From an uncultured archaeon (lineage in GTDB: Archaea > Asgardarchaeota > Thorarchaeia > Thorarchaeales > Thorarchaeaceae), in NCBI GenBank assembly GCA_964558645.1, contig CAZLEV010000003.1:192001-256000 (forward strand): a stretch of DNA of 64,000 bases, read 5' to 3'. Position numbers and translations under genes: made by a program. The notes below the pieces were generated by a model, which searched no databases, was not told the DNA's origin, and saw only the letters and a list, made by a program, of their open reading frames with translations. Below are positions 5,201-61,385 of the stretch, piece by piece; position 1 is the first letter of the stretch; every line of letters begins with the position of its first letter.

Positions 5201-5852
5201 GGTTGATGAAGAGCCCCATCGTTCCTGCCTGTGATATCTGATTGCCTGTTATTTCGATGCCTTTACACTCAGTAACAGATACGCCGTGACCTGAAAACGA
5301 GTTGGAGTCCAGCTGGATGTTCTCACACTGAAGCAGTTCCATATATGAAGCCGCATCAACGTGCGAGTCAATGTGGGCGATCCGCGAATCCGTGACATTC
5401 TCGAGGCGAATACCATAACCCTTGGAAACAACGGTGACATGTTCGATCAGAGCGTTGGCGGCGTTGATAACTTCGACAGCGTATCTGCCCGTAGATGATT
5501 GGCCGAGATAGCAGTCTCTGATAACGAAGTGGGACGTTGTGTTGTATATCCTTATCAAAATCTGGTTGATGTCGTAAGTTATGTTCAGACCCTCAATGAG
5601 ATACGGCGAACCAGGAGATCCATCACCGGGCCAAGACTGACTCACGAAGTCCTCCTCCCCCTCTATCAGTATGGGGACACGGTTAGTATGCTCCTCTGGA
5701 GTAAGCCGAGTGCCAACATCTTGTGCCGGCTTGTTCGGCGTAGTCTTTGACAGTTCAGTCCCTACTTCTGGCGTGAAAAGGCCAGTCGTAATCACGAGTG
5801 GCTGGGCTACTAAGATTGCTAACATGACAAACATGAAAACATTGCTCTTCAT
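2250..5852 (-). CDS. NosD/parallel beta-helix repeat surface protein with three C-terminal Ig-like repeats and TM anchor, paralog 2
   Basis: 1200 aa; signal peptide; many GIxLxxSxNxxIxxNxI beta-helix turns; GNYWDDY motif; three P-x-[IV]-x-SP-x-D...W...D...Y...DG repeats; C-terminal hydrophobic helix plus KRR; GGAGG before ATG. Confidence 0.9.
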   Translation of the reverse strand: MKSNVFMFVMLAILVAQPLVITTGLFTPEVGTELSKTTPNKPAQDVGTRLTPEEHTNRVPILIEGEEDFVSQSWPGDGSPGSPYLIEGLNITYDINQILIRIYNTTSHFVIRDCYLGQSSTGRYAVEVINAANALIEHVTVVSKGYGIRLENVTDSRIAHIDSHVDAASYMELLQCENIQLDSNSFSGHGVSVTECKGIEITGNQISQAGTMGLFINHSNGTLVQSNLVNVTTGSGLRLDNSSHCDVRSNQILSASGRGIHLTLSENVTIEDNRVLNSGGSGLQFATHQWISVVGNHFNSSGSYPVYTTASENGIISGNIIVNTPSYGGIVFQNSAENFTISDNHIENTYGGFITFSGANLEILRNTIENVGNHFIAPVGVLDANLINNTCKDSSLFAIYLSNSHRATVSGNVVNSSYNQGVLAGGINLTISGNLLYENSIGVTLSSGSTNARVFDNWIQETETGVRIEASDAQIESNTISYALTGVGVYGSAHRAQIVDNTIDTVSTGIFARNINQSVIGNTISNAAIGVDLNTATAPWIEANTIQASETGIQVSATTQGIFENNNMTGCGFYFPPEQSLAQLNHTLIDNNVGEKPVFYDLNGVGLTLDDSYGEYILVNSTDVTITGGFFSHTTAAILAYLTDELTISSMSTVDLIYPFVFDRCENVTLQNSVMEDLYSGDGVTVMDSVRFLADNVSISRGNHNGFRLDGSSLSTIQNCEISDLDGAGVYSYSSEYGLVESNLMSNCTYGVRIEFTLYSSIRANHMQWCEYGIFSSSESDYNNATFNNIHDGLYGIRMDDSFTWYIYNNTIRWNSYGLYITQTDDDQYIYNNTFALNRIHNGFDSGSDQWDDRVDSGNYWDDYSGTGVYNIPGGTSVDSYPYRYIVTKPIINSPIDLWYAEGSVGNTIAWFPYDDALRNWLVEIDGAEWTRGAWNLDNITVNVDGLPYGTHTVTVTVWDIYQNYVNDTVLVQVYDDTPPVVDSPPDQWLFVDLAGQTIDWEVSDLNPATYMVSVDGIEFETGTWSTGTLSVNVDAIPVGRHDVVLVIYDADGNSASDSVAVLVIADDEAPTIDSPADVIYVEGATGNRIIWSPSDAHPDRYEIVLDGSVIEEGMWAGSRITFTVDGYDVGTYGFTITVYDKTGQSASDTVNLNVLAVTPMETPTEPVDYSMLAIVAGAGVVAVVVIAVLYYMTKRRGSS

Positions 5853-6295: not shown

Positions 6296-9200
6296 TCAAG
6301 CTCTTCTCTTCCGCAAGTAGAAGACAACGCTCACCGCGACTAGGATACCTAATGCCGCTAGTATCACCTCAAGTGGCACTAATTCAGTGAGTGGCGGTTC
6401 CTCTATGACAGCCTCCACTGGTAGAACCGTCAGTGCCACACTATCAGTGGCCGAATTGCCGCTGCGATCATAGACCGTGATGGTGAAGTCGTAACTGCCT
6501 ACGGGATACCCATCGATATCAAAGACTATTCGTCCACCTGACCATTTGCTGGATTTCACAACAGTTCCGTTCTTGGCAATCTCGTAGCTGGATGGATAGT
6601 CGTCTGACGGACTCCAGACAATACTATTTCCAGTCGAGTCCTCTTGATACGTTACGTCTGCAGGACTGTCGACAGTTGGAGACTCATCATCTGCGATGAC
6701 CAACACCACGACAGTGTCGCTTGCAGAGTTACCATCGATGTCGAAGATGGTGATTCTGACCTCGTGCTCTCCCTCAGGGATTCCATCGACATCTACGGCA
6801 AGAGTCCCAGACTCCCATGTACCTGATGATAACTCGGTATCGTCAACGAATAGAGTATAGGTGTCCGGATTTAGGTCGGAAACCTCCCAACTGATTGTTT
6901 GACCGGTTGCATCGACGAATAACCATTGGTCAGGTGGGTTGTCAATCTCAGGCGGCGTGTTGTCATAAACGTGGACCATGACTGTGTCCTCTACGGTGTT
7001 CCCAGTCATATCACGCACGGTGATGATGACCTCATGGGTCCCGTATGCCAGACCATCAATGTTCACGGTAACATTGTCGTAATTCCACGGACCGGAGTCC
7101 CAGGGGGCTCCGTCAATCTCAACCTCCCAGTTCTTGAGATAGTCATCAAAGGGCAGCCAAAAGATCTCGTTCCCTGTCGAACCCTCCGCGTAGTAGACAT
7201 CCTCTGGCGTGTTGATGATAGGCTCAGTCACCACATACTGCCTGGGGTATCTGTCCTGTGCGGCTCCCACTCCAGTGATGATATAGGGTGGCGGCGGAGT
7301 GTAGTCGCCCCATATGTTTCCCACATCGACCCCGTCGTCCCAGTACTCGAAGGTGTCATCGATTCCATTGGCATAGAAGTTGAGAGCAATGATGTTGTCT
7401 GCCACAACTCCGACTGTACCTACGCTTTCAAACTCCATCCCAACATTGTTCCAGCGTATGGTGTTGTTTACTATGATCCAATCCGAGCCCCCCTCTCTGA
7501 GGATACCATCATCGTTGTCGTGGACATTGTTCCACGTCACGTTCCAATCATCGCAGGTCGAGGCATACATAGCGGCACCACACCACTTCATCTCGTTATC
7601 AGTGATGAGGACATCATCAGTGTTACTCCCGTATATCGCCACAGACGCGTTGCTGAACTCACAACTGGATACAACTGCGAGAATGTTGGTGGTGAATGCT
7701 CCCTCCATGTAGACTGCATACCCATCTATGTCAGTGAAGGTGCAATCCAGGACTGTAAAATTGTAGAAGGCTATGCTAAGCAGAGCAGAGGGGAGGCCAA
7801 ACCATGTGCCACCCAGACCGTCAAATGAGCAGTTCTCAGCCCAGAATCCGTCGCTCTCCCATAAGAAGATACCACTTCCCAGGCTGGTGCCCTCGAAGGT
7901 GCAGTCGACCACTGTGACATTGTCCACAACCAGAGCGAATGAACTGACAATCTGTCGATTAACGAGGACGTTGCTCACCGTTATGTCATGGCCAAACATC
8001 AACTGGATCGGACAGGTGCTCCTCACAAACTCGCCTCCTGTGATGGTACTATCCGTGCAGTTCACGAGGATAATCTGGCCGTAATCGTTCCCGTCGATAC
8101 TCAGATCTGATTCGCTCAATGCATAGTATAGGGGTTTCCCGTTCACGGTGTTATCGGAGAATGAATGGTTGTATATGGAAACGGCTATGGGCTCCACCAA
8201 GAGGAGGAAACCACAGTCAACCAACGTGTTTCCGGAGAAGTTGGAGTAATCCACAGATATCAGATTAATGCCCGCAATTCCACAGTGGGAGATGCTATTG
8301 CTTGAGAAATCTGACTGGAACACCCCGTCCAGATACATGCCGTCCTGCCCACATTGGGAGATCTCATTGCCAGCGAACTCCGATGTTACAATGGATTGAA
8401 GATACATGCCATTTTCTGTGCACTCGGAGATAATGTTGTCATTGATTGTGCTGTTTACAGTGTCTACTACAGCCATACCCCCATAACAATTGCTGATGAC
8501 GTTGTCCCTGATGTACTGTTCATCACAGTTCTCAAGTACTATGCCGTATTCGCATTCCGAGATTGTGTTCTCCCAGAGCTCGATCAAACCGTGTCCCCCT
8601 GAATAGAAGCCCTCGTAAGTACACATCGAGATGTCATTGTACCAGATGTCTGTGAACGCTCCTCCAACGACTATTAAGCCATATTCCATATTCTCCATCG
8701 TATTGTCGTGAATCTTCCAAGCCACGCAATTCTCTAAGACGACTCCACCAGAATGGAAGTCCGCGACGAAGTTGTAGGCAAATGTCCCGTTATCGGAGGC
8801 TGCAATGTTGATGTCGCCCCCTTCGGCAATTCTGTTGTGGGAGATATTGGCCCAGTGGCATTGACCCAGGTCCATTCCAAAGCCGTTCACGGTTTCCAGT
8901 TCATTGAAGAGGATCTGAGAGTGGTTTGAGAGTGAGAGGCCGATAGCATTTCCGCCTATGTTCGAGAGCACTGAATCCTGAAGTCCGAAGTGTGGCGTGT
9001 TGGTGACTTCTATCCCCATAGACTGCGTGTCATTCACCAGGATGTTGCTGAAGGTTACTTCCGAGCATTGAGTGACTCGAAGACAGGAGGACCCTACTCG
9101 GTTAGAGAATCTGGAATCTGTGAGGCTGAAGGAGTGGCACTCATACACATTCAGTGCCCTGTTGTCGGTGGCAATATCGGCATTGCGTATCTCTGAGTTG

Positions 9201-9991
9201 TTTGAGTAGTAGAGAAAGATTCCCTCCATGCCCTCCAGGGCTGTCAGCCCATCAGCGAAGAAGGATGAGCAGTTCCGAACATACAGCTCGATGGCGGCGG
9301 CGTGAAACTCCACATCCAGTAGTTGGAAGTCCTCAGAGAACCAGATCTCGAGGTCCAGAATGCCGCTGTCAAAGACTGAGTCGCTGACGGTTGAGTAGCT
9401 ACTACTGTTGACATATGCCGCAGTGTGTGATGTAGCATTGAACAACGAATGTGTAACTTCGGAATCAGGACAGTAATTGATGTAGAGGGCATGTTCATTG
9501 TTTGATTCGGCATGCACATAACCAATGGATGTGCCACCTGCATTTCTAGCGAAGACACCTCCCCCACCTGAGAGGAGTGTCACATACTGAACCCTCGCGT
9601 GACTCACATTCTCCAGCAATATGCCTGATTCAGTTGACTGTTGCTTCAGGAAGCAGTCTTCTATGATGAAGTAGCTGTCAGTATTGGTAATCTTGATGAG
9701 ATAGTCTGGCCAATTGTATGTGATATTCCAGCCCGAGATGACGTAGGGGTCCGCTTCGCTACCTGTTCCCGGCCAGCCCTGTGCGATGAAGTCGTCATCT
9801 CCATCTATTCCAATGGGTACGCGATTCGTATGTTGTTGGGGAAGAAGGCGCGTACCTGGTTCTTGGGTTAAAACCGCATCCTTTCTCTTCGAGGTGTCGG
9901 CCGCATGTTGTCCACTTGCGATGTGCATGACAACGAGCGGTTGTACAATCAGAATCCCTAGAAAGACTAGAACGAACAATTTTCTCTTCAT
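6296..9991 (-). CDS. NosD/parallel beta-helix repeat surface protein with three Ig-like repeats and TM anchor, paralog 3
   Basis: 1231 aa; same architecture as 2250..5852 (signal peptide, WPGTGSEADPY, beta-helix repeats, GNIWGDY, three Ig-like repeats, TM plus RKRRA); GGAGGAG RBS. Confidence 0.9.
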   Translation of the reverse strand: MKRKLFVLVFLGILIVQPLVVMHIASGQHAADTSKRKDAVLTQEPGTRLLPQQHTNRVPIGIDGDDDFIAQGWPGTGSEADPYVISGWNITYNWPDYLIKITNTDSYFIIEDCFLKQQSTESGILLENVSHARVQYVTLLSGGGGVFARNAGGTSIGYVHAESNNEHALYINYCPDSEVTHSLFNATSHTAAYVNSSSYSTVSDSVFDSGILDLEIWFSEDFQLLDVEFHAAAIELYVRNCSSFFADGLTALEGMEGIFLYYSNNSEIRNADIATDNRALNVYECHSFSLTDSRFSNRVGSSCLRVTQCSEVTFSNILVNDTQSMGIEVTNTPHFGLQDSVLSNIGGNAIGLSLSNHSQILFNELETVNGFGMDLGQCHWANISHNRIAEGGDINIAASDNGTFAYNFVADFHSGGVVLENCVAWKIHDNTMENMEYGLIVVGGAFTDIWYNDISMCTYEGFYSGGHGLIELWENTISECEYGIVLENCDEQYIRDNVISNCYGGMAVVDTVNSTINDNIISECTENGMYLQSIVTSEFAGNEISQCGQDGMYLDGVFQSDFSSNSISHCGIAGINLISVDYSNFSGNTLVDCGFLLLVEPIAVSIYNHSFSDNTVNGKPLYYALSESDLSIDGNDYGQIILVNCTDSTITGGEFVRSTCPIQLMFGHDITVSNVLVNRQIVSSFALVVDNVTVVDCTFEGTSLGSGIFLWESDGFWAENCSFDGLGGTWFGLPSALLSIAFYNFTVLDCTFTDIDGYAVYMEGAFTTNILAVVSSCEFSNASVAIYGSNTDDVLITDNEMKWCGAAMYASTCDDWNVTWNNVHDNDDGILREGGSDWIIVNNTIRWNNVGMEFESVGTVGVVADNIIALNFYANGIDDTFEYWDDGVDVGNIWGDYTPPPPYIITGVGAAQDRYPRQYVVTEPIINTPEDVYYAEGSTGNEIFWLPFDDYLKNWEVEIDGAPWDSGPWNYDNVTVNIDGLAYGTHEVIITVRDMTGNTVEDTVMVHVYDNTPPEIDNPPDQWLFVDATGQTISWEVSDLNPDTYTLFVDDTELSSGTWESGTLAVDVDGIPEGEHEVRITIFDIDGNSASDTVVVLVIADDESPTVDSPADVTYQEDSTGNSIVWSPSDDYPSSYEIAKNGTVVKSSKWSGGRIVFDIDGYPVGSYDFTITVYDRSGNSATDSVALTVLPVEAVIEEPPLTELVPLEVILAALGILVAVSVVFYLRKRRA

Positions 9992-42712: not shown

Positions 42713-43662
42713 TCGATCACCTCATCAAGCGCATTCATTTCTTCTAGTTCTTTGATTTCGCGAGCTATCCTGCGTCCCATCCACATGGGCTCGGAGAACA
42801 TGAGATAACTGTAGGGGGAGTATGGAATCCAAATGTTCGTCCCTGCAACTATACGTCCACTAAACTCGAACGTGTAGATCTGTTGGTTCCGGTCAATTAT
42901 GGTCTCGAGACAAAATGGTCCGACCAGCCTCTTTCCGGTAAGCTCCTGGAACGCCCTGGCAAAGTGCTTTCCCATCTCATAGTACCTAGCGAGGGTGGAC
43001 TCCCTCAACACCATGGGCAGATTGCCAATCACAACAAACGAGGGCCGCTCGTCGAATCTTAGATTGGCGTCTGCGTCTGTTTCATACCGGATGTCTGCGC
43101 CAAACACTTCCATTCGTTCCCTTGCCACCGAGTTGAAGTATGTGACGAAGACTTTCGTGCCGACAATGTACTCCTGCATAGCCACTTGGGTATCCGAGCT
43201 CATCTTGGCACGTGCCTCCTCCCCGTTCTCAGCAATGAAGTATCCCTCGCCTCCTGCAGCTCCATGCGACTTGACTATGATGGGGCAGTCGACCTCATCG
43301 ATGCTTGCGAATTCTCTTGGAACAAGAAGTCCAGCCGCTCTCATCAACTCGGATTTTAGCTCTCTGTCTTCTTCCCACCGCAGCAACTCCTTACTGCCAA
43401 ATAGTCGTAGATTGGACTCGATGATTCGGTCAGCTCCAATATAGGCAACAAAGGAACCATGAGGTACCATTATGGTGTCAGATAGATCCATATCAAGAAT
43501 CTCATCGAACGCCGACACTCTGATAATAGAATCTGACAGCCCAAAGGTGCTATAGAATTCCTCTCTATCTGAGTGGCAATAGAGAGCTGTCTGGAAACCT
43601 TCTGCTCTCGCTCCAGAGAGAATGTTGAGGGCACTGTGGCTTGCAATAGTTCCAATCTTCAC
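42709..43662 (-). CDS. purP: PurP-family formate-dependent AICAR formyltransferase (FAICAR synthetase)
   Basis: ASHSALNI..GA..EGF, PHGSFVAYIG, GGEGYF, D.RYET, GNLP.VLRES, GPFCLET, FEFSGRIVAGTN, MGRRIAREI. Confidence 0.88.
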   Translation of the reverse strand: MKIGTIASHSALNILSGARAEGFQTALYCHSDREEFYSTFGLSDSIIRVSAFDEILDMDLSDTIMVPHGSFVAYIGADRIIESNLRLFGSKELLRWEEDRELKSELMRAAGLLVPREFASIDEVDCPIIVKSHGAAGGEGYFIAENGEEARAKMSSDTQVAMQEYIVGTKVFVTYFNSVARERMEVFGADIRYETDADANLRFDERPSFVVIGNLPMVLRESTLARYYEMGKHFARAFQELTGKRLVGPFCLETIIDRNQQIYTFEFSGRIVAGTNIWIPYSPYSYLMFSEPMWMGRRIAREIKELEEMNALDEVIE

Positions 43663-45053
43663 CGTATCTCCCTCTCATAGTCTCTGATGCCATCTTGCAT
43701 GCCATCCGAGTGGACGGCTTTCTGTATCCTTCTTGCATGCTCTGTGGGATAATCGCCATCCAAACATGCCAGGCACATATCCTGAATGCCAATGGCATTC
43801 ACAAGCCCATCGATGTCCTGGTAGATGAGAGCATCTGCACCTATGAAATCGCGTATACTTTCCATGTCTGCTTCTGAGGCGATCAGTTCTCTTGAATTCG
43901 ATATATCTATGCCATAGTAGCAAGGATGGCTCTGTGGTGGGCATGTCACTGCAAAATAAACTCTGGATGCTCCTCTTCTCTTCAAATCATTGACTATCAT
44001 CTTGGCTGTTGTACCCCTTACGATACTGTCGTCAACGACCAGCAGGTTCCTTCCCCGAATCTTGTCGTCTAGGTAGATGTACTTGTAATGTGTCACCGAG
44101 TCTCTCTCTGAGACTGAGCAAATGAACGTTCGACCTAGGTATCTGTTCTTCAGGATGACCTCCCTCATTGGCACTCTCAGTTCTTCAGCGAGGGCCTGTG
44201 CGGCCGGTCGGCTCGTATCTGGTACCGGGATTACGTAGTCGGGTTTCTCCAGTTGAAGATTAGTGAATGTATTCGCAAGTGCTCTACCTAACCGGAATCG
44301 AACATCATACACAAGCTGATTCTCTATTCTCGCTGCTGGATTCGCGAAGTAGACATACTCAAAGAAGCAGTGCTTGTGGGTGTCTTGCTGAGATATGCTG
44401 TAGCACTGAACCGACTTCTCAGGTCCAAAGATAATGAGTTCTCCGGGGTAGACATCTCGGTCGAAGATGACTTGAGCCATGTTGAGAACAGTGCTCTCGG
44501 ATGCTACTATGGTGTGTTCAGCTGATCTGCCAAAGACAAGGGGCTTGAACCCTCGAGAGTCCCGATAGGCAAAGAGTCTTCCGTCATAGATTCCAACAAT
44601 ACTATATGCCCCGTCAATCTCTGACGCGAGTCGGGTGAAGGCGGTGGCCAGATTTCCATCGCCCTCTGAAAGATGCATCCATAGCCTATCGCAAATGAAT
44701 TTGGTATCACATTCATAGTCCTCATGAACCAACGAACGGAGGTTTGTTATGTTTCCGTTGTGGGTGACTGCAAGTCGACCCTTCTGGAAAGGCCCCACGA
44801 AATCATGAAATCTTTCCTCCGAGGTCACCCGGTGTCCAGACGTTGGATATCTGGTGCTTCCAAGGATGATGTTTGACTCCTTCTCTTGGAGAGACAGATT
44901 TGAAGGGTTACCTATCGTCTTGGACTCCTGGAACTTCGAACCAGATATCCAGAGCAAACCTGAGGCGTCCTGTCCCCGATGTGTTAAGAGGCGGAGTAGT
45001 TCCTTCGAGGCGCCTAATTCATAGCGCCCAAGAATACCAAGAACACCACACAT
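43659..45053 (-). CDS. purF: Amidophosphoribosyltransferase (Fe-S type)
   Basis: N-terminal MCG nucleophile, HRGQD, HNGNI, CFFEYVY, VDDSIVRGTT, PCYYGID, CLACLDG. Confidence 0.96.
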   Translation of the reverse strand: MCGVLGILGRYELGASKELLRLLTHRGQDASGLLWISGSKFQESKTIGNPSNLSLQEKESNIILGSTRYPTSGHRVTSEERFHDFVGPFQKGRLAVTHNGNITNLRSLVHEDYECDTKFICDRLWMHLSEGDGNLATAFTRLASEIDGAYSIVGIYDGRLFAYRDSRGFKPLVFGRSAEHTIVASESTVLNMAQVIFDRDVYPGELIIFGPEKSVQCYSISQQDTHKHCFFEYVYFANPAARIENQLVYDVRFRLGRALANTFTNLQLEKPDYVIPVPDTSRPAAQALAEELRVPMREVILKNRYLGRTFICSVSERDSVTHYKYIYLDDKIRGRNLLVVDDSIVRGTTAKMIVNDLKRRGASRVYFAVTCPPQSHPCYYGIDISNSRELIASEADMESIRDFIGADALIYQDIDGLVNAIGIQDMCLACLDGDYPTEHARRIQKAVHSDGMQDGIRDYEREIR

Positions 45054-45060
45054 GTAATCT

Positions 45061-45666
45061 TCACTCCCTGATTCTCACAATTCTTCCATCTGCCGCGAGT
45101 CGATTCTCACAGAAGAGCTTGACACTCTCAACCAGTATTCGGTGTTCTTCAGGGAGTATCCTGTCGGCAAGAGTTTCTCCAGTATCGTTCTGCCTGACTT
45201 CGACTGGAGTCTGCAGGATTATTGGCCCTGCATCCATGTCTACGTCGACGAAGTGCGTGGTACAGCCTGAGAATCTTACCCCATACTCCACTGCTTGCCA
45301 TTGAGCCTTAACTCCCTTGAAGGCAGGAAGGAGTGATGGGTGTACGTTTATCATTCTGTGTTTGAACTCTCTGCAGAAGAAGGATGTAAGAATCCGCATA
45401 TAGCCAGCTAGGACGACCAAATCCACGCCGTTGTCTTTCAACACCTGAACAACAGCGCGATCATGGTCCTCTCGGTTCGGGTGATCAATCTTCGTGATGA
45501 TTTGAGTCTTGATTCCTGCTTCTTCCGCGCGCTGCAAGCCGTATGCACTGCTCTTGTTACTGATGACTATGGCTATCTTGCCGTCAAAATGCCCGCTTCG
45601 CTGCGCATCGATTAGGGCCTGAAGATTCGTGCCTCGTCCACTTATCAGAACCCCGATACGTGTCAT
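45061..45666 (-). CDS. purN: GAR transformylase (folate-dependent)
   Basis: ISGRGTNLQAL, LAGYMRIL, NVHPSLLP.FKG, GCTTHFV..MDAGPII; likely start ATG 45666. Confidence 0.96.
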   Translation of the reverse strand: MTRIGVLISGRGTNLQALIDAQRSGHFDGKIAIVISNKSSAYGLQRAEEAGIKTQIITKIDHPNREDHDRAVVQVLKDNGVDLVVLAGYMRILTSFFCREFKHRMINVHPSLLPAFKGVKAQWQAVEYGVRFSGCTTHFVDVDMDAGPIILQTPVEVRQNDTGETLADRILPEEHRILVESVKLFCENRLAADGRIVRIRE

Positions 45667-45719
45667 GTAAAACGGCCGCTTTAACACGACTATTTATGAC
45701 TTACTCAAGAATGCTGGGT

Positions 45720-49153: not shown

Positions 49154-50233
49154 CTAAGGCTTCATTTGAGCTAGAATCTCTCTGAGTCTCGGCTCAGCCA
49201 GAATCGCATGCTGAAGTTTGCATAGCAGCTTCGCAGTTTCAGCAAAAATGACTTTTCTAGGAGCATCAGTCACTTGCTCCGCACTCTGGATTGCTTCCTG
49301 GCATCTCTGGTTTATTCTCTTGATGAGGCGCTTCTCGAGCTCAGGGCCGCCCCAGCCAAATCCATCGAATGCCGTCTGTGCGTCGCTGATCTTCTCGTCA
49401 GGGTTAGGTTCTTCGCCCTTGAGGATACCCTCAAGACCGGCAAAGTATCTCGCGACAGCTCGCTCAATCCTCTCTGTTTCGCCTGGATCCAAGTACTTCT
49501 CTGGTGGTCTATGCTTGGCAAGGTCTTGAAGCAGCCGTGCTCCTGGCGCTTCAGTAAGAAGTCCTTTAACAATTTTGACAAGTATTTGTCCGGGAATCTC
49601 TACTGCATCAGACATATGGGGGGATTGAGAGCGATACCTGTGAAGCTCCTTCATGACTTCAAACCAGAACATGGGAAGAAGGACATGACAACGCTTCGAA
49701 TATTGGTTGATCATGCGGTTCGTCTGTCCGATCATACCCCACTCGTCGTCTTCGACTTCTGCTTTCTTGTAGGGCTCTGGTGGGGTTTCTGGTTCCGTAG
49801 GCACAATGGGCCCGGTTCCCTCGCGTTCTTTCGGTGATGTGTGTGTGAGAGGAGTAGCCCTTCCGGTAGTCTTGGGTCCTCCCTCAAGTATCGTGAGAAT
49901 CTCCTGTGCCTCTTTCCCCATTTCCATGGCTTTGGCTTTCTGAGAGAGCTTGGGCAGCAGACTCTCAAGCTGTGCCATTCTCTTGATGATGAGTCCAAGA
50001 ATGTTGGCAGTAGACTGAGGAATACCTTTTGCGGATGTGGTTTCTTCAATCCATCTACGGGTGCGGAGGAGTCCCTGCGTCAGCGAGTCAACACGATCAG
50101 GATCTATTGCCCCCTCGACTTGTGAACTGAGCAAGAAGTGAATCAGAGTGGAGTTGAGGGTTTCAACTAGAAGCACCCTGTCGATTAGGTCCTCCACTCG
50201 GAATTCTTCTGTCAATTCTGGTAACTCCTTCAT
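49154..50233 (-). CDS. Hypothetical two-domain alpha-helical protein with Pro/Thr-rich linker; third gene of the tubulin-like operon
   Basis: 359 aa; ATG directly abuts the upstream TAG (TAGATG). Confidence 0.8.
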   Translation of the reverse strand: MKELPELTEEFRVEDLIDRVLLVETLNSTLIHFLLSSQVEGAIDPDRVDSLTQGLLRTRRWIEETTSAKGIPQSTANILGLIIKRMAQLESLLPKLSQKAKAMEMGKEAQEILTILEGGPKTTGRATPLTHTSPKEREGTGPIVPTEPETPPEPYKKAEVEDDEWGMIGQTNRMINQYSKRCHVLLPMFWFEVMKELHRYRSQSPHMSDAVEIPGQILVKIVKGLLTEAPGARLLQDLAKHRPPEKYLDPGETERIERAVARYFAGLEGILKGEEPNPDEKISDAQTAFDGFGWGGPELEKRLIKRINQRCQEAIQSAEQVTDAPRKVIFAETAKLLCKLQHAILAEPRLREILAQMKP

Positions 50234-51619
50234 CTACTCTGTTGGTGTGCTCGCTTCCATATAGTAGCTGAAAAGCTCTCGGAAGTCGTTGATAGCGCTA
50301 ACGAGTTCCTTTCGGGATGTGCCCTTGGATCTCATGAACCAACTCTGTTTCAACGGAGATGGACCACTATGGAGATTGACTAGCTGAGTTGCTTCATTTA
50401 TGAGTTGAACAAGCTCCGGAATCTTCGGTAGTCCGAGAAGCAACAAAAGATTAGTCGCATAGTCCCTCTTTTCATATTGAACATAGCATGGAGTGATGGC
50501 AGCTCCTGGTGCAATGAACTGGTCGAGAGCCTCTTTGAGATGCATACCATATTCTGCCTTCGAAATATGTCGCGGCCCGCTGAAGACATAGTAGACGCTC
50601 TCAGCATTAGGCTCCTCGCCAACGTCTGCATATGAACACTCCTTCACGGCATAATCGATCATAGTTCGGAGCTGTTTTGGCATACTCCCAGCATCGGGGA
50701 TCAGACCAACATCCGTGTAGAGTGCAGGCACGACCACTGGATCCAGTTTCCGTGCGTAGTCTGCGAGATCTGTTGTTGGGAATACATCCTTATGTGTTTC
50801 ATAGACGCCTGGTGAGAGCATTGCTTCGACAACATCAAGAGCAAGCGGATTGACAAGCTCTACAAAGGCCTGTTCGGTTCTCTCCTCAATCTCAGTCGCC
50901 TCATCGAGAGTTGAGGGTACCATTGTTTCGATTGAACCTACACTGGCTATGTCAACGTTAAGCTCTCGCTCAAGATAATCAACGCTATCGCTTCTTCGTG
51001 ACTGGAGGATTCGTTTCAGCATTGTCCTGTTACTCAGGAGAATAGTTAGGTCTGCCCCACGTTCCTGTAGCTGTGCACGGAGTAGTTTGGAGACCGCCCA
51101 TATGGAGTTGAGTGCCTCACTTGATTGTCCCTCAAAGGGAAGAATGCCGATTACATAAACGAAAATCCTGCGGCCTTCCTCTTCTTGGAATCGCTGCTTG
51201 AGGAGCTCAATCACTGCTGGCGTACCGCCACATCCAGTTCCTCCTCCGAGACTTGTGAATATGCAGAACCCGGAAACACCCTCGAATCCAAGGTTACTGA
51301 GCTGGTCAAAGATTATGTCCTTCGAGTCCATGACTGCCTGATAGCCGTCCATGAAACGGCCACCAACTCCAATCTCCGATGAACCGTAGAGCAAGGTGTG
51401 TTCCTTAGGAATGCCATATTTCGATCTGACCTTGGTAAGATCTGCTCTGTCGGTGTTCATCAGAAGATATCCTCTGACACGCGATGGTAGCTTACGGTCT
51501 CGGCTCGCCTTGAGGTACGAGCCAACTATATTCGAGCCTGCCTCACCAATGCCTATGGCGAATACCTCTGCCGCTTTCGTAGACTCATCCTCGGTCTTCT
51601 TTGAACTATCTCGAAACAT
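50234..51619 (-). CDS. Tubulin/FtsZ superfamily GTPase with tubulin-like features
   Basis: IGIGEAGSNI (T1), NTDRADL (T2), GVGG (T3), GFCIFTSLGGGTGCG (T4), EALNS, LSN, TDLADYARKLDP (T7/H8), C-terminal helices. Confidence 0.92.
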   Translation of the reverse strand: MFRDSSKKTEDESTKAAEVFAIGIGEAGSNIVGSYLKASRDRKLPSRVRGYLLMNTDRADLTKVRSKYGIPKEHTLLYGSSEIGVGGRFMDGYQAVMDSKDIIFDQLSNLGFEGVSGFCIFTSLGGGTGCGGTPAVIELLKQRFQEEEGRRIFVYVIGILPFEGQSSEALNSIWAVSKLLRAQLQERGADLTILLSNRTMLKRILQSRRSDSVDYLERELNVDIASVGSIETMVPSTLDEATEIEERTEQAFVELVNPLALDVVEAMLSPGVYETHKDVFPTTDLADYARKLDPVVVPALYTDVGLIPDAGSMPKQLRTMIDYAVKECSYADVGEEPNAESVYYVFSGPRHISKAEYGMHLKEALDQFIAPGAAITPCYVQYEKRDYATNLLLLLGLPKIPELVQLINEATQLVNLHSGPSPLKQSWFMRSKGTSRKELVSAINDFRELFSYYMEASTPTE

Positions 51620-51623
51620 GATA

Positions 51624-54311
51624 TTATCCCCGTTTCTTAACCATTGTGTCCGCTATAACTCGAACTGCCCATGATAGATATGAGCTTATGTCCTCTCTGC
51701 TGTAGGTCTCGCGGATTTTCCGTACAGCGTCATCCAAGAATTCATCTCGCTTGTCTGCGCTCTCCGCTGGACTGAATCCGGCCATGAACATCTTCAATGA
51801 TTTGTGCCAGTCGTCCATCTTCTCTGCTTTGTCGACCCATCCCTTGCGTAGTTTCTTGAGCTCGTTGAAGTGCTTGAGTGCTTCATCAAGAACCAGTGCT
51901 TCATTTAGCTTCGCTTCCAGTTCATACATGCGGTCCAGCGGGTAAATCTTCACGCTGAAGTCCTTTGGATGCTTCTCAAAGACACGTTCAATTGTTGAGT
52001 AGTACTCGCTCTTCTCACGTAATTCAGAGTCAAACTCTTCCGAATCCTTGTTAGCAATGCTCTTGATTACTGTGAGCATCTCTTCCTGCACGTTAGCCAA
52101 TGTAAGACAAACGTCCAGTGCCTCGTTGATGTGCTTAGACTCTGCATCTAGTTGTACTGGTACCTGCTCAACCAGTGTGTTCAAGCGCGCCACGAACTCT
52201 GACATGCCTTCTTCCTCAAAGAGATGAATTGCATCTTTTATCTGACTGTATGCTTCATCCACTCTGCTTCTGATCTTCTTGTGAAGGTCTTGGGATGTTG
52301 TGAGATTGGCAAGTCTGTCAAAGTCCTCAGCAGCAGCTTCAAGGTCACGTGGTGGTTCCGCCTTGATCTTTCTGAGAACGTCAAGCTCCTTAGTGACTTC
52401 CACTCCGATGCTCTCTGCCTTCTCGAATGATTGCTCCAAGTCGTCGACTTCTTCCATGAGCAAGTCGATGACTTCAGAGCTGATCTTCTTCTCGTATATC
52501 TCGATCATTTTGCGAGCGATTGCCGGTAAGCTGAAGACAGTATCCGCTGCCACTCCAATATTGTTTAGTTCACTGATTGCTTCTTGGACATCTGGGGGTA
52601 TCGTTACTCCTGCTCCCATGAGTTTGGCCGCTGCAAGTCGAATCTTGACCCGTAGACGATATCTGAGATTCTCCAACGAATCTTTCGCTTTTGCTAGAAT
52701 CGAATCCTTGATTGTCCGCATCTCAGACCTCAATGCCCCGAAATCGTCCTTCTTGTCCAGAGTACTGGCGCCGTCTTCTAGATTCACGATTATCGGCATG
52801 AAGATCTCAGCATATTCTGGCTTGATGGTTTGGAGGTCTTCGATGATAGCGTTTACTTCCTGTTTGCAGGCATCTCTGAAAGTTGCCACGCCGCTTTCCA
52901 CCGCATTCCTGAGATTGTTGAGACTCTCAACAAGATAGACTATGCTTCCTTCGAGGTCTTCAACCTTGGGCGCTTTCTTGCTCAGTTGTGCATAATCTAG
53001 CACCCTGTCGGCAGATGTTGCGAGCTCGTTGAATCTGGCCAAGTAGTTACGTATCTTGTCAGTCAGTTCCTGCTTAGCCTCATCGCGTATGGTCTTAGCC
53101 TTCAGGTAGATTTTGATCATACCATCAACGTCGGACTTCTCAAGTTCCTTTCTTGAGCTTGAAACGAACTTGCGTACACCTGACAGATCCTTTATTCCAG
53201 TGTCGTCGGGAACATCAGCTGCCTTCTCGACCTCATCGAGGGTTTCTTCTACTTGGTCTTTGAGAGCAATCTTGACTTGCCCCTCCCATTCAACCATTTT
53301 CTGATAGGAGGAGAGAAGTGACGCGACGTCCTCATTGTCGACCGAGAATACAGGAGCCTGAGGTATGACTGCTGAAGACGTGGGGATGCCCCCTTCAACT
53401 ATCTTGCTGGTTACCTCATGCTTCATGTTGATGATCCTGTCCCTTAGCATGTTGGCAACTTGGAGCCTAGCAGTTTCGAGTTGGCTCTCCAAAGATAATA
53501 GAGTAGTAAGCGTCGTGGCTTTGGATGCATCTCTTGCTAATTCACGAAGCTTCTGAGAAAAGTCCATTGGAAGGTTCAAACCCAGTCTAGTCGCAGTTTC
53601 AACGGAGGCCTGGAGGGACTCAATATCCGACATTAGAGAAACACTGAGCATTCGTGAGACTTCATCCTTACGACCGTCAAGGTAAGTCCTCTCTACTTGG
53701 AGCTTCTTCATAAGAGATAGAATATCAGGAATCGGTAAGTGAGATACTTCGTCAACAGAGACTGTCGTTGCAACTTCGCTTCGATCTATAGTGATATGCC
53801 TCTCATAGGTTTCAACAAATCTCTTGTTTTCGTCCAAGAGCTCCTTTGTATCACGAGCCAGTTCCTGATGCAGGCTGCTGTATTTCTTCGTAAACGCATC
53901 CGCAAACTCGTACAAGTGCGCTGCATCCTTGAAGTCGCCTGCGCCCATCGCTGGAACAGAAACGGCCGAGAGTGCTTTTGCATCTGCTGGCTTTATCTCC
54001 TGGATTGTTGGTATCATGCCCGTTACATCACGATGTGTCTTACGGAAAAGCTCTGCGAAATCACGAATAAGACGCATGAAGTCTTCCTCAAGGTTTCCCT
54101 CAGTATTCTCGACTTTGGATTTGACCTTCCTCTTCGAGAAGAATCCGGCGTCTTCAAGCTCGTTTTCTGTCTTCGACAGCTTTGCAAAGACATCATAGAG
54201 ATGCCTCACCTTTCTGTCTACTTGTTCTTCTAGTGAGGGATCAAGTAGTACTAGCATACCTTTCATTTCGGAAACACGGTCTAGTTCCCGTCGCCAAGTA
54301 TTCGAGTCCAA
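51624..54311 (-). CDS. Large all-helical repeat/coiled-coil rod protein (about 895 aa); first gene of the tubulin-like operon
   Basis: AGGAGGT RBS before TTG at 54311 (ORF-track start 54446 probably too long); no TM or NTPase motif; recurring 60-75 aa helical units. Confidence 0.85.
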   Translation of the reverse strand: MDSNTWRRELDRVSEMKGMLVLLDPSLEEQVDRKVRHLYDVFAKLSKTENELEDAGFFSKRKVKSKVENTEGNLEEDFMRLIRDFAELFRKTHRDVTGMIPTIQEIKPADAKALSAVSVPAMGAGDFKDAAHLYEFADAFTKKYSSLHQELARDTKELLDENKRFVETYERHITIDRSEVATTVSVDEVSHLPIPDILSLMKKLQVERTYLDGRKDEVSRMLSVSLMSDIESLQASVETATRLGLNLPMDFSQKLRELARDASKATTLTTLLSLESQLETARLQVANMLRDRIINMKHEVTSKIVEGGIPTSSAVIPQAPVFSVDNEDVASLLSSYQKMVEWEGQVKIALKDQVEETLDEVEKAADVPDDTGIKDLSGVRKFVSSSRKELEKSDVDGMIKIYLKAKTIRDEAKQELTDKIRNYLARFNELATSADRVLDYAQLSKKAPKVEDLEGSIVYLVESLNNLRNAVESGVATFRDACKQEVNAIIEDLQTIKPEYAEIFMPIIVNLEDGASTLDKKDDFGALRSEMRTIKDSILAKAKDSLENLRYRLRVKIRLAAAKLMGAGVTIPPDVQEAISELNNIGVAADTVFSLPAIARKMIEIYEKKISSEVIDLLMEEVDDLEQSFEKAESIGVEVTKELDVLRKIKAEPPRDLEAAAEDFDRLANLTTSQDLHKKIRSRVDEAYSQIKDAIHLFEEEGMSEFVARLNTLVEQVPVQLDAESKHINEALDVCLTLANVQEEMLTVIKSIANKDSEEFDSELREKSEYYSTIERVFEKHPKDFSVKIYPLDRMYELEAKLNEALVLDEALKHFNELKKLRKGWVDKAEKMDDWHKSLKMFMAGFSPAESADKRDEFLDDAVRKIRETYSREDISSYLSWAVRVIADTMVKKRG

Positions 54312-54508
54312 ATGCCTACCTCCTTTATGGGGCCTAGTCTTTCTCAGTGCACTATGTTTTAAGTGTGTTCTCCGTAGCTCCTCCCAGACTTGTATATTTC
54401 TATGACAGGCTGCTCCTATTGTGATAAAGCATTGTTTTATTAGCACACGAAAATGCCTTATGTTCTACATAGGACCCTGCGTAAGGGAAAGCTAGGCGAG
54501 TCGATAGA

Positions 54509-56452
54509 ATGTCGAGCCCGACTGGAGGTTCAGCAGAGACAGTTCCTCTTCGTCATGAGACTATCACACTGCTTGAGACCGACGTCTTGTCGGTTGTACA
54601 TGACGATGAACATGTCTATGCTGCTTGCAAGGATATGAAGGTCAGAGTATGGGCCAAGTCCAATTGGCATCTAGTTGCCACGCTAGGTGACACAAGTTCT
54701 GAACCCCTTGGGCTTCATATTGATAATGAGCACATCTACGCAACATGCGAGAAACGAGTCTATGTATGGAAGAAGCATACTTGGGGCATGATAGGATGGT
54801 TCGAGCTGAGCTACCAAGCTGCCACATCGATGATTCATGGAGAGTACCTTTACGTTGGCGCCAAGGATGGGCGACTTGTCTCGATTCGCAAAGACACACA
54901 TGAAACAAGTTCATGGCAACTACACAACTCAGACATTTCATCACTGTGGGCAAACGCCGATATCATATGTACTTGCTCGAAGAAGGATAGGCCCAGAGTA
55001 TGGAGATACAACGCGGACCAAGCCCCCTCTGAAGTAACTGAGCTTGAAGGAAAAGAGAAGTGCACAGATATCTCCGGAAGCAACGAACTCCTGATAGTAG
55101 GGTTAGGGACAGGCGAGATAAGACTCTGGGATCGAGTTGAATTTGACCTTGTAAAAACACTGAGCCTTGGCATTAACGAGCCAATCAGGCATATGTGGAA
55201 TAACAACCAGTATCTTGTTGCAGTCATCGGCGCCAAAACCATTGGCATCTGGGACCTGAAGAGTGGGGCAGAGATTGGATCCACAGAGATTGAGGATGTC
55301 GATATCAGCTTCCTCAGTGTTGATGGCGAACATATGTACATCGCGACTGATGACGGAATTCTGGTCGAGCGTTTCTCTCTTGGGGAGGTCATTCTTGATC
55401 TTGACTCTGAGGCTGGCATGGAGTTTGGTGCGAGCCTATTACGTACTTCTCCATATGACGTGTTGGAAGGCGTTCTTGATTTGAAACAGAAGGGTGAATC
55501 TCTGCTCAAAGAGGGAGAGTATCACAACGCTGTGACCCAATTCGAGAAAGCACTCCAGCTACTGATTGACAATAGCCACGCACTTCTAGAGGTTCCTGAG
55601 GAACAAGAGAAACTCACGCGAGAGCTTAACACCAAACTTGGAAGGGCCCTTCTCCGGAGTAAGATTGTGGAGCTTCATGATATCAATGCCCGTATTGAGC
55701 AGATATCAGACGAGCTAGAACTGAAAGGTAAAACAGAAATAGAGGAGAAGGAACTCGAAAAGCTCTGGAGGGAGGCTGCATCTGCAGCCAAAGAGAGCCG
55801 TGTGCTTGCAGAAGCGCAGGCTGGAGATATGCTTGCTTACCAGTTGTCCTATGTTGCCGATAGCTTGGAGTCAGATCTTCAGGATGCCAAGCAGAAAGTT
55901 GAGCAATACCGTGACAAGGTTCAGCAGGTTGTCGCCTTGACCCATGGCATAATGAGCGAATGGCGCTGGATGGAGCGTCGGAGGACCACACTTGCTCAGA
56001 GGAAAGCGTTTCTTGAGAACGCCATCGAGAGGCTCGAAAAGCGGCTTGACGAAGTGGATGATGATGAAGAGGTTCGTGATATTCTCGAAGAGGCGATAGA
56101 AGAACACAAGCAGATTCAAGACCAGATATCTCGTATTCTTGAAGCCTCTGAGAACGGTGAAGAAGAAGAGATTACTGATAGGGATGAGGCCGTAGCGGCA
56201 GTCAACGGCCTTCTGAAAGTCATGCCAAAGAGGAGGAGCGCATTGCTCTCAATTGAGGATTCTGAGGAACGACAGCAGGAGAAGGAGCGTCTGAAAAGCG
56301 CCCTGCAACAAGCGCTTGAAACCGCAGAACAACACAGTCTGAAGGAAGAGATTCGAAACATTGAGAATGAACTCAATGCACTGGAAGGAATCGACTTGGC
56401 CAGAGAGCGCGTGTCACCACACGTAGATACCGAGGACACCGACCAACAGTAA
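54509..56452 (+). CDS. WD40 beta-propeller plus TPR/MIT-like helical bundle plus coiled-coil protein
   Basis: Repeats ending VRVW, VYVW, PRVW, IRLWD, IGIWD; LKQKGESLLKEGEYHNAVTQFEKALQLL; E/K/Q-rich heptad C-half. Confidence 0.85.
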   Translation: MSSPTGGSAETVPLRHETITLLETDVLSVVHDDEHVYAACKDMKVRVWAKSNWHLVATLGDTSSEPLGLHIDNEHIYATCEKRVYVWKKHTWGMIGWFELSYQAATSMIHGEYLYVGAKDGRLVSIRKDTHETSSWQLHNSDISSLWANADIICTCSKKDRPRVWRYNADQAPSEVTELEGKEKCTDISGSNELLIVGLGTGEIRLWDRVEFDLVKTLSLGINEPIRHMWNNNQYLVAVIGAKTIGIWDLKSGAEIGSTEIEDVDISFLSVDGEHMYIATDDGILVERFSLGEVILDLDSEAGMEFGASLLRTSPYDVLEGVLDLKQKGESLLKEGEYHNAVTQFEKALQLLIDNSHALLEVPEEQEKLTRELNTKLGRALLRSKIVELHDINARIEQISDELELKGKTEIEEKELEKLWREAASAAKESRVLAEAQAGDMLAYQLSYVADSLESDLQDAKQKVEQYRDKVQQVVALTHGIMSEWRWMERRRTTLAQRKAFLENAIERLEKRLDEVDDDEEVRDILEEAIEEHKQIQDQISRILEASENGEEEEITDRDEAVAAVNGLLKVMPKRRSALLSIEDSEERQQEKERLKSALQQALETAEQHSLKEEIRNIENELNALEGIDLARERVSPHVDTEDTDQQ

Positions 56453-56464
56453 CTGCAGATTTAC

Positions 56465-57097
56465 TTACCCTGCAGCCGGATACTCGTCAGAAATGCCTAG
56501 CTCGAAGAGATTGTCTTGACGCAATAGTTCGATCCACTCGTCAGCCAAGGGTTGGAGACCCGGGTCAATGGCAAAAGCTGTTTCTGCGGCCTGCAAGGCC
56601 TCATTGTAGGACTCCTCGATGAGGTAACAGACAGCGAGGTTGTACCAGGCTACAGCCGAGTTTGGGTTGAGGCTTAGGGCACGTTCAAGCGAGTGTTTAG
56701 CTTCCTCCCATCGCTCATGGGCGATAAGGGCAATGGCAAGAAGCTCCCAATCTCTGCTCCGCTTGGGTCTGATTCGAAGGCTCTCTTGCAGAGCGTCAAT
56801 TCCCTCATCACTCTCATTAAGAAGCAGGTGAAGATATCCTTTTTCAGCCCATGCTTTTTCAGAACAGGGTTTAATTCTCACTACGTTCTCAAGCGCCTCC
56901 AAGGCTTTCTTCGGTCGTTTCAGTTCAAGGTTGCAGACAGCTATTCGCTCCCAGATGTGATAGTTGTCTGGGTCGATTAGTGCTCCCTCTTCAAGAGCGT
57001 CCACAGCCTCAGAGAACCTGAACTTCTTCATCAAGACAGAGGCCTGATCCAGAATACCGTTTACTGCATTGTTTTTGTGGTTGTTTCTTAACAACAC
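56465..57097 (-). CDS. Tetratricopeptide repeat protein
   Basis: About 5 TPR units (e.g. AWYNLAVCYLIEESYNEALQAAETAFAIDP). Confidence 0.88.
   Translation of the reverse strand: MLLRNNHKNNAVNGILDQASVLMKKFRFSEAVDALEEGALIDPDNYHIWERIAVCNLELKRPKKALEALENVVRIKPCSEKAWAEKGYLHLLLNESDEGIDALQESLRIRPKRSRDWELLAIALIAHERWEEAKHSLERALSLNPNSAVAWYNLAVCYLIEESYNEALQAAETAFAIDPGLQPLADEWIELLRQDNLFELGISDEYPAAG

Positions 57098-59255: not shown

Positions 59256-61385
<2,130 letters not shown>

Follow-up and report, generated by a model that had tools for sequence, protein, structure and literature searches.

Three adjacent minus-strand genes constitute one conserved unit in a 64,000-nucleotide stretch of DNA from an uncultured archaeon of the family Thorarchaeaceae (GenBank assembly GCA_964558645.1, contig CAZLEV010000003.1, positions 192,001–256,000; the whole stretch is hereafter referred to as the window). 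They encode a long all-helical protein (the rod), a GTPase of the tubulin/FtsZ superfamily and a small helical protein of 359 aa. The locus is probably an Asgard-specific three-component cytoskeletal module built around the GTPase, which by its sequence belongs to the published Asg.Tub clade. In our best reading, which draws on analogy with characterized systems, the module would consist of a GTP-dependent filament and two dedicated accessory proteins, and would be devoted to cell shape or membrane work rather than to division. The GTPase family is not new, since near-identical sequences are included in a published alignment, and a filament with accessory factors is a known kind of system; what is new here is the strictly conserved three-protein module and the two unannotated families of partners.

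The unity of the three genes is most apparent from their distribution. Of 41 related genomes, 29 contain strong matches to all three proteins and the others to none; in these 29 the coordinates are adjacent and the order is rod, GTPase, small protein. Adjacency within the Thorarchaeaceae says little, because the whole neighbourhood is collinear there; it is the distant loci that are informative. The adjacency and order of the three genes are preserved in at least nine Asgard families, including Thor, Hermod, Borr/Sif, Asgardarchaeum and Heimdall/Hod-like lineages, and persist between families whose GTPases share only 43–63% identity. Beyond the Thorarchaeaceae, they sit together in loci of eight lineages in which the identity of the GTPase declines from 74% to 43%. 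The rod gene lies directly upstream of the GTPase gene in every lineage checked, and in 11 other loci the three genes overlap or are separated by gaps of at most 67 nt. In the window they are translationally coupled: the TAA of the rod gene is followed by TATC (4 nt) and the ATG of the GTPase, and the TAG of the GTPase abuts the ATG of the small-protein gene with a gap of 0 nt, both junctions being read directly from the sequence. The tight coupling that the preliminary description of this DNA had reported from the one locus is thus confirmed, and the co-occurrence of the three genes, on which that description had staked its proposal, extends to other genomes and across distant Asgard lineages. 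An all-against-all comparison of open reading frames (ORFs) from 15 loci recovered only the rod, GTPase and small-protein families in three or more lineages, with no fourth conserved neighbour. The immediate flanks vary by lineage (M24 peptidase, ThiN, transposase, MoCF and others), and only two other genes of the window were seen beside distant cores: one that is FMN-dehydrogenase-like, at the f2 locus, where the order is the same, and, in Borrarchaeum, one for a CoA-binding protein.

Among 400 Asgard genomes, the GTPase is present in 124, concentrated in nine families (74/85, 20/22, 15/19, 5/5, 4/4 and 2/2 genomes, and three single-genome families), with family f18 tentatively assigned to Hodarchaeales by resemblance to named database proteins; it was not found in other families, including two with 0/135 and 0/31 genomes. 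Between Thor genera the GTPase is 78–89% identical, the rod 59–64% and the small protein 60–69%, against 76–81% and 74–87% for the two FtsZs encoded in these genomes, so that Asg.Tub is as constrained as the division proteins. Two Thor genomes have interrupted genes: the GTPase gene of one (G009:C11:37650-39124) is split in two frames, covering residues 6–360 and 357–460, and the small-partner gene of another (G014:C98:21248-22369) is split into residues 8–129 and 130–359. These are probably frameshifts or assembly errors of metagenome-assembled genomes (MAGs).

Membership of the superfamily is supported by a match of GTPase residues 18–202 to the Pfam Tubulin family PF00091 (68.9 bits, E 9.5e-19; gathering cut-off 33 bits), a match shared by all 7 lineage representatives of the family. 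Across these 7 lineages the T4 signature is invariably GGGTGCG, with Cys instead of the Ser/Thr of GGGTG[ST]G, and D284 and D287 are invariant within a T7-like TTDLADY/TTDLAD motif, which was placed by pattern only. Compared with CetZ and with a distant relative described below (P0128), the core family has a specific insertion of ~30–40 residues before the presumed H7. CetZ_C (PF21011), Tubulin_C and FtsZ_C are undetectable in the GTPase, and PF21011 yields no match at E-values up to 10 in the 7 members; the nearest outgroup proteins score 150–184 bits with the same model. The best PDB relatives are CetZ1 of Haloferax volcanii (4b46) and another CetZ, matched over the N-terminal domain only, followed at much weaker E-values by tubulins, OdinTubulin, BtubB and AtubA; tubulins are aligned with the GTPase profile over only ~110 N-terminal residues (E about 1e-6 or weaker). 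Alignment by hhalign to a profile of ten canonical CetZ proteins carrying CetZ_C covers residues 19–203 (99.8% probability, 32% identity) and nothing beyond. Judged from these comparisons, the protein is a member of the tubulin/FtsZ superfamily that is related to CetZ through its N-terminal domain only. Accordingly, the label ‘tubulin-based’ given in the preliminary description stands as far as a superfamily GTPase is meant and is otherwise overstated.

Asg.Tub was named as a CetZ-like group in Asgardarchaeota, with a position that is unstable between CetZ and the tubulins, an origin that was called unclear and a C-terminus matching no other family (Santana-Molina et al., 2023; PMC9871819). 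The published C-terminal alignment contains two Thorarchaeales sequences (SMTZ1-83 and AB-25) nearly identical to the GTPase of the window, as well as sequences of Heimdall LC-3 and B3-JM-08, and the shared motifs include FVELVNPLAL, FPTTDLADYARKLDPVVVPALY, LLGLPKIPEL and HSG.SPLKQ.WF (PMC9871819). Database homologs at 50–56% identity bear mostly the names of Hodarchaeales and Heimdallarchaeota, among them an LC_3 entry annotated as ‘Tubulin-like protein CetZ’. The family is compact and isolated: among 1.84 billion representative proteins, its profile matched only seven below 1e-30, and the next matches came after a gap to ~1e-15. In a maximum-likelihood tree of 33 sequences, it is monophyletic (92/92), with a few non-canonical proteins and then OdinTubulin, on a long branch, as its sisters. 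A 94/94 split separates all of these from 8 canonical CetZ, and two PF21011-bearing proteins (P0150 and P0159) also fall outside the 8-row canonical CetZ group. The tree reproduces the published placement of Asg.Tub between CetZ and the tubulins, although with sparse sampling and long branches this placement is indicative only. Within the family, lineages are grouped roughly as in the taxonomy, which fits vertical inheritance; one duplication is seen in the Heimdall/Hod-like group. The neighbours of Asg.Tub were described only as unknown, most of them having coiled-coil regions according to HHpred (PMC9871819), and Asg.Tub serves, as a CetZ-related clade of Asgard archaea, as the outgroup in another analysis (10.64898/2026.02.15.705738). 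Our literature search found no paper characterizing an Asg.Tub protein or its neighbours, and the papers on Asg.Tub describe neither the strict three-gene module nor how it is distributed, do not mention the FtsZ-like conservation and contain no models of the partners.

The AlphaFold2 (AF2) model of the rod (16-sequence alignment; mean predicted local distance difference test, pLDDT, 87; predicted template modelling score 0.40) comprises ~30 helices of 10–45 residues joined by short loops, with no strands, and resembles a series of helical bundles more than a single long coiled coil. Two regions stand out by their conservation in most aligned lineages, namely a hydrophobic-polybasic loop at residues ~57–66 (GFFSKRK, FLKKKK and GFFKKRG types) and the C-terminal residues 760–895, the most conserved stretch of the protein, which includes the invariant W835, H836, Y878 and L879. 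The rod was not assigned to any family in Pfam or NCBIfam, where only sub-threshold noise was recorded, and its match to apolipoprotein A-I in a PDB profile search (E 1e-3) is an effect of composition only. Foldseek returned nothing below E 0.07, its hits being dynein-tail-like long helices with TM-scores of ~0.1, and the VIA fold search reached at most Z 11, with generic helical bundles. I-BAR and BAR domains aligned with residues 1–110 at Z 7.4–8.5, under the ~13 expected by chance for helical bundles. The listed homologs of the rod are named ‘hypothetical’, apart from one with an evidently wrong enzyme name, and the organism names, where given, are those of Asgard MAGs.

The small protein is modelled by AF2 (14-sequence alignment; pLDDT 82) as an N-terminal three-helix bundle (residues 13–116), a disordered Pro/Glu-rich linker (117–150) and a helical C-terminal domain (155–359; pLDDT >93), to which its cross-lineage conservation is limited and which carries the motifs DxWG, LLPxFW, EAPxARLLQ and FxWGGPxLEKR and a near-terminal invariant Lys. 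Neither Pfam, NCBIfam and PDB sequences nor ESM Atlas features provided a relative or a usable match; PDB profile matches to designed helical repeats are again an effect of composition only. Among fold searches, Foldseek found nothing in the PDB at E <= 0.001, the Atlas search gave TM-scores of at most 0.32, and VIA (wide and pdb_via) retrieved only generic matches to the N-terminal bundle, with the C-terminal domain barely tested. Spectrin repeats matched this bundle at Z 9–10, likewise under the ~13 expected by chance. All 120 homologs listed of 199 are ‘hypothetical’, and the organism names, where given, are those of Asgard MAGs. No helix-turn-helix or other DNA-binding family of Pfam or NCBIfam was detected in either the rod or the small protein.

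By analogy with CetZ, FtsZ and tubulin, Asg.Tub would bind GTP and assemble into head-to-tail protofilaments, in which each subunit would complete, by its T7 loop, the GTPase site of its neighbour. The rod could serve as an elongated scaffold, the conserved C-terminal part of which (~760–895) might contact the filament or the small protein, and the hydrophobic-polybasic loop near its N-terminus could touch an anionic surface such as a membrane. The 359-aa protein, through its conserved C-terminal domain, might act as a stoichiometric modulator or adaptor of the GTPase. Such a module would more likely serve cell shape, protrusions or membrane remodelling than division. Additional support for the rod and the GTPase as a specific pair comes from the Heimdall/Hod-like group, in which a second copy of the module has been formed by joint duplication of the rod (~1140 aa) and GTPase (441–444 aa) genes, without a small-protein gene. 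A 311-aa gene upstream of this paralogous module was considered as a displaced small partner and rejected (hhalign probability 0.1%). The convergent neighbour of the paralogous module encodes a protein of 739 aa with an N-terminal small GTPase domain of the Gtr1/RagA type (PF04670, E 9e-31).

Several observations weigh against this interpretation. Polymerization, GTPase activity and partner binding are extrapolated from the behaviour of the superfamily; the first T7 position is Thr, versus Asn in FtsZ; and the C-terminal half of the GTPase fits no known family of C-terminal domains, so that a complete two-domain fold is assumed. Neither partner has a recognizable filament- or membrane-binding domain, as the BAR, spectrin and bundle matches are all under the noise. 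Furthermore, one partner is missing from the paralogous Heimdall/Hod-like module and one from the relative P0128, which implies that the three-part composition is not obligatory for all relatives. P0128 (L114:8001-10149, on a contig of Logan SRR7811641) is a protein of 457 aa, 29% identical over both domains, that retains GGGTGCG and the T7-like TTDLAD motif with D284/D287 and has no family insertion. There is no rod gene upstream of it, SMC/ScpA and pyrD-like genes being located there instead, and the overlapping 262-aa gene downstream weakly resembles the small partner's C-terminal end (hhalign probability 26%, E 7e-4). Of the nearest non-canonical relatives, P0138 is alone on a 1.6-kb contig and P0140 is located beside purine genes, so that their context is uninformative. 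Complex prediction for the GTPase with residues 150–359 of the small protein gave 0.52, 0.00 and 0.00 in three runs and counts neither way.

The same properties could be accommodated by a GTPase that forms no filaments and instead joins its two partners in a discrete complex, where it plays a regulatory or assembly role, for example in membrane remodelling or trafficking, with GTP controlling its conformation. This possibility, which we consider unlikely, is favoured by the dissimilarity, at the sequence level, of the C-terminal half to known activation domains of the tubulin superfamily, by the insertion before H7 and by the strict 1:1:1 gene coupling, which would fit a stoichiometric complex as well. 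However, the invariant T7-like acidic residues make sense only at a subunit–subunit interface, and the FtsZ-like conservation is typical of polymer formers, the surfaces of which are constrained on all sides.

As regards the place of this putative filament among characterized systems, the nearest family is CetZ, a non-division cell-shape filament of archaea that also possess FtsZ1 and FtsZ2. The GTPase domains are alike, but the C-terminal halves do not align, and Asg.Tub has no detectable CetZ_C and falls outside the canonical CetZ group in our tree. Nor are CetZ and the Asgard CetZ-like sequences related in their genomic context (PMC9871819). Asg.Tub differs from the eukaryote-type tubulins (alpha/beta/gamma, OdinTubulin and AtubAB) in showing neither a Tubulin_C match nor full-length similarity. 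A parallel in operon design is offered by BtubA/BtubB-BtubC of Prosthecobacter, a tubulin-family polymer encoded together with a helical-repeat protein that stabilizes the filament (PMC9871819); by contrast, BtubAB are heterodimers of true tubulins and their accessory BtubC is a TPR protein, whereas the Asgard module has one GTPase and two partners that are unrelated in sequence to BtubC. FtsZ with EzrA, ZapA or SepF and crenactin with arcadins likewise combine a prokaryotic cytomotive filament with lineage-specific, mostly helical accessory proteins, although this is an analogy only. EzrA is a chain of spectrin-like helical bundles. Arcadins are encoded beside crenactin (PMC10936438). The rod has no transmembrane anchor, and our searches found no sequence match or convincing fold match to EzrA, spectrin or arcadins.

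Given the shared superfamily and the FtsZ-level conservation, Asg.Tub might be a third division protein that joins FtsZ1 and FtsZ2 at the division site. We find this improbable: the module was not found in the large FtsZ-keeping Asgard families (0/135 and 0/31 genomes), the GTPase, at 35.9 bits, falls short of the 295.2-bit cut-off of the ftsZ equivalog model TIGR00065, and the locus is outside the ribosomal/sepF context of archaeal ftsZ (PMC9871819). Two canonical FtsZ genes are located on other contigs of the same genome. The presence of these FtsZs elsewhere, the non-ftsZ context and the failure to detect the module in those families together favour a function outside division. The module is flanked by housekeeping genes for metabolism and repair (CoA-binding/ligase-like, FMN dehydrogenase, purN/purF-like, molybdopterin oxidoreductase, RidA and LigA), and no sepF, ribosomal, partition, plasmid or virus genes are present around the module in the window, in agreement with the preliminary description, which had judged the context to be unlike that of ftsZ, plasmid or phage loci.

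This context also bears on the resemblance to TubZ-TubR-tubC/TubY and PhuZ, in which a superfamily GTPase is likewise encoded adjacent to small dedicated partner genes. A chromosomal DNA-segregation machine of this type, with the small protein as a centromere-binding adaptor, would share with the module the three-gene layout of a tubulin-like GTPase and a small downstream protein, and by protein-language-model features TubZ-like clusters (0.93) come just behind CetZ (0.94). Nevertheless, TubZ and PhuZ are plasmid- or phage-borne and work with a DNA-binding adaptor and centromere repeats, none of which was found for the Asgard module. No DNA-binding family was detected in the partners, and the small-protein model is all-helical without a matched DNA-binding fold. 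Upstream of the operon there is no iteron-like or centromere-like repeat array but only short two-copy repeats, and the locus is single-copy and chromosomal, lies among housekeeping genes and appears to be inherited vertically. With no DNA-binding domain, repeat array or mobile-element context, a partition role is very improbable.

The preliminary description had also counted the divergent WD40-TPR gene and the TPR gene beyond it as members of the system. The layout that it gave is correct: the WD40 gene starts ~200 bp from the rod gene on the opposite strand, provided that the rod starts at TTG 54311, and it converges on the TPR gene, the ORF map and the domain matches being in agreement. The membership does not hold. 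The 647-aa protein shows WD40 propeller matches, one TPR and an acidic helical tail, all Pfam matches being below the curated cut-offs; it is fast-evolving, and its homologs (44–54% identity) were found only in the Thorarchaeaceae, where they occur in 22 of 24 genomes. The 210-aa protein matches TPR_1 and TPR_2 at 88–90 bits and is syntenic within the Thorarchaeaceae only. A five-gene system, in which both proteins would be filament partners specific to the Thorarchaeaceae and comparable to microtubule-associated proteins (MAPs), seems unlikely to us. It draws some support from the head-to-head arrangement of the WD40 and rod genes, kept in 14 of 16 Thor genera despite the low identity of the WD40 protein, from the filament-binding TPR protein of BtubABC (PMC9871819) and from a TPR gene that flanks the core in Asgardarchaeum as well, although the latter is unrelated and TPR genes are common. 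On the other hand, the whole neighbourhood in the Thorarchaeaceae is collinear down to its metabolic genes, which reflects shared ancestry and not selection; in two genera (g10 and g12) the core is retained although the WD40 gene is missing; and no WD40 or TPR homolog accompanies the core in any other lineage. Both genes are lineage-specific neighbours outside the conserved unit, for which a Thor-specific association is possible. A structural cluster of WD40 propellers is reported to link eight proteins of Thorarchaeia to eukaryotic proteins (2026 preprint, PMC13734099).

In its broadest form, which we put forward only tentatively, the proposal is that the module may represent a third, separate tubulin-superfamily cytoskeleton of Asgard archaea, beside FtsZ1/2 and the AtubAB/Odin tubulins, that would form membrane-associated filaments, employ a helical scaffold of 900–1200 aa and a small regulator, and have been inherited vertically from the common ancestor of the Thor/Hermod/Sif and Heimdall/Hod lineages. 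If so, the module was probably present in the archaeal lineage ancestral to eukaryotes, and an archaeal tubulin homolog would for the first time be known to have dedicated ‘MAP-like’ factors, namely the two partners. In the genomes searched, Asg.Tub is far commoner than true tubulins are reported to be, being nearly universal in the Thorarchaeaceae as well as in several families of the Heimdall/Hod-like, Hermod and Sif/Borr groups. For experimental work, the module provides a defined three-protein system and two new protein families known only beside a tubulin homolog.

Table 1. Genes and other features of the module locus (positions in the window) and of its paralogous counterpart (positions in the respective loci).
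Feature	Position	Strand	Basis or remark
Small helical partner, 359 aa	49154..50233	-	ORF map; ATG abuts GTPase stop codon
Asg.Tub GTPase, 461 aa	50234..51619	-	ORF map; PF00091 match
Rod (long all-helical protein), 895 aa from TTG 54311	51624..54311	-	ORF open to GTG 54446
Divergent intergenic region between rod and WD40 genes; presumed operon promoter region	54312..54508		AT-rich; GGAGG before TTG 54311
WD40 propeller + TPR + acidic helical tail, 647 aa	54509..56452	+	Family-level neighbour, outside conserved core
TPR protein, 210 aa	56465..57097	-	Family-level neighbour, outside conserved core
Paralogous Heimdall/Hod-like module, two genomes	L108:7150-15178 and L109:5062-13101		

The coordinates of the rod depend on the choice of its start codon. 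The longest reading of the ORF begins at a GTG and spans 51624–54446 (940 aa), but the true start is most likely TTG 54311, and the GTG start wrong, because GGAGG is located 6 nt upstream of this TTG, the database homologs are 895–898 aa long, similarity in related genomes begins at about residue 40–46, and in several of these genomes stop codons occur before this point. With this start, the rod and WD40 genes are separated by ~200 bp of divergent intergenic DNA.

Several other genes of the window merit mention. A full-length NAD-dependent DNA ligase of the bacterial LigA type (59262–61385, plus strand), with adenylation, OB, Zn-finger, HhH and BRCT domains, occupies the same position in other Thor genomes. 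The ORF list includes two very long ORFs near the start of the window, at 2250–5852 and 6296–9991 (both minus strand), of 1200 and 1231 aa, respectively. A few kilobases from the module there are purF-like and purN-like genes (43659–45687, minus strand), and P0140, a distant tubulin-like protein of 612 aa (L117:1-5909), is encoded directly after purF-like and purD genes; the proximity of purine genes to both the module and P0140 is either a remnant of a shared context or a coincidence.

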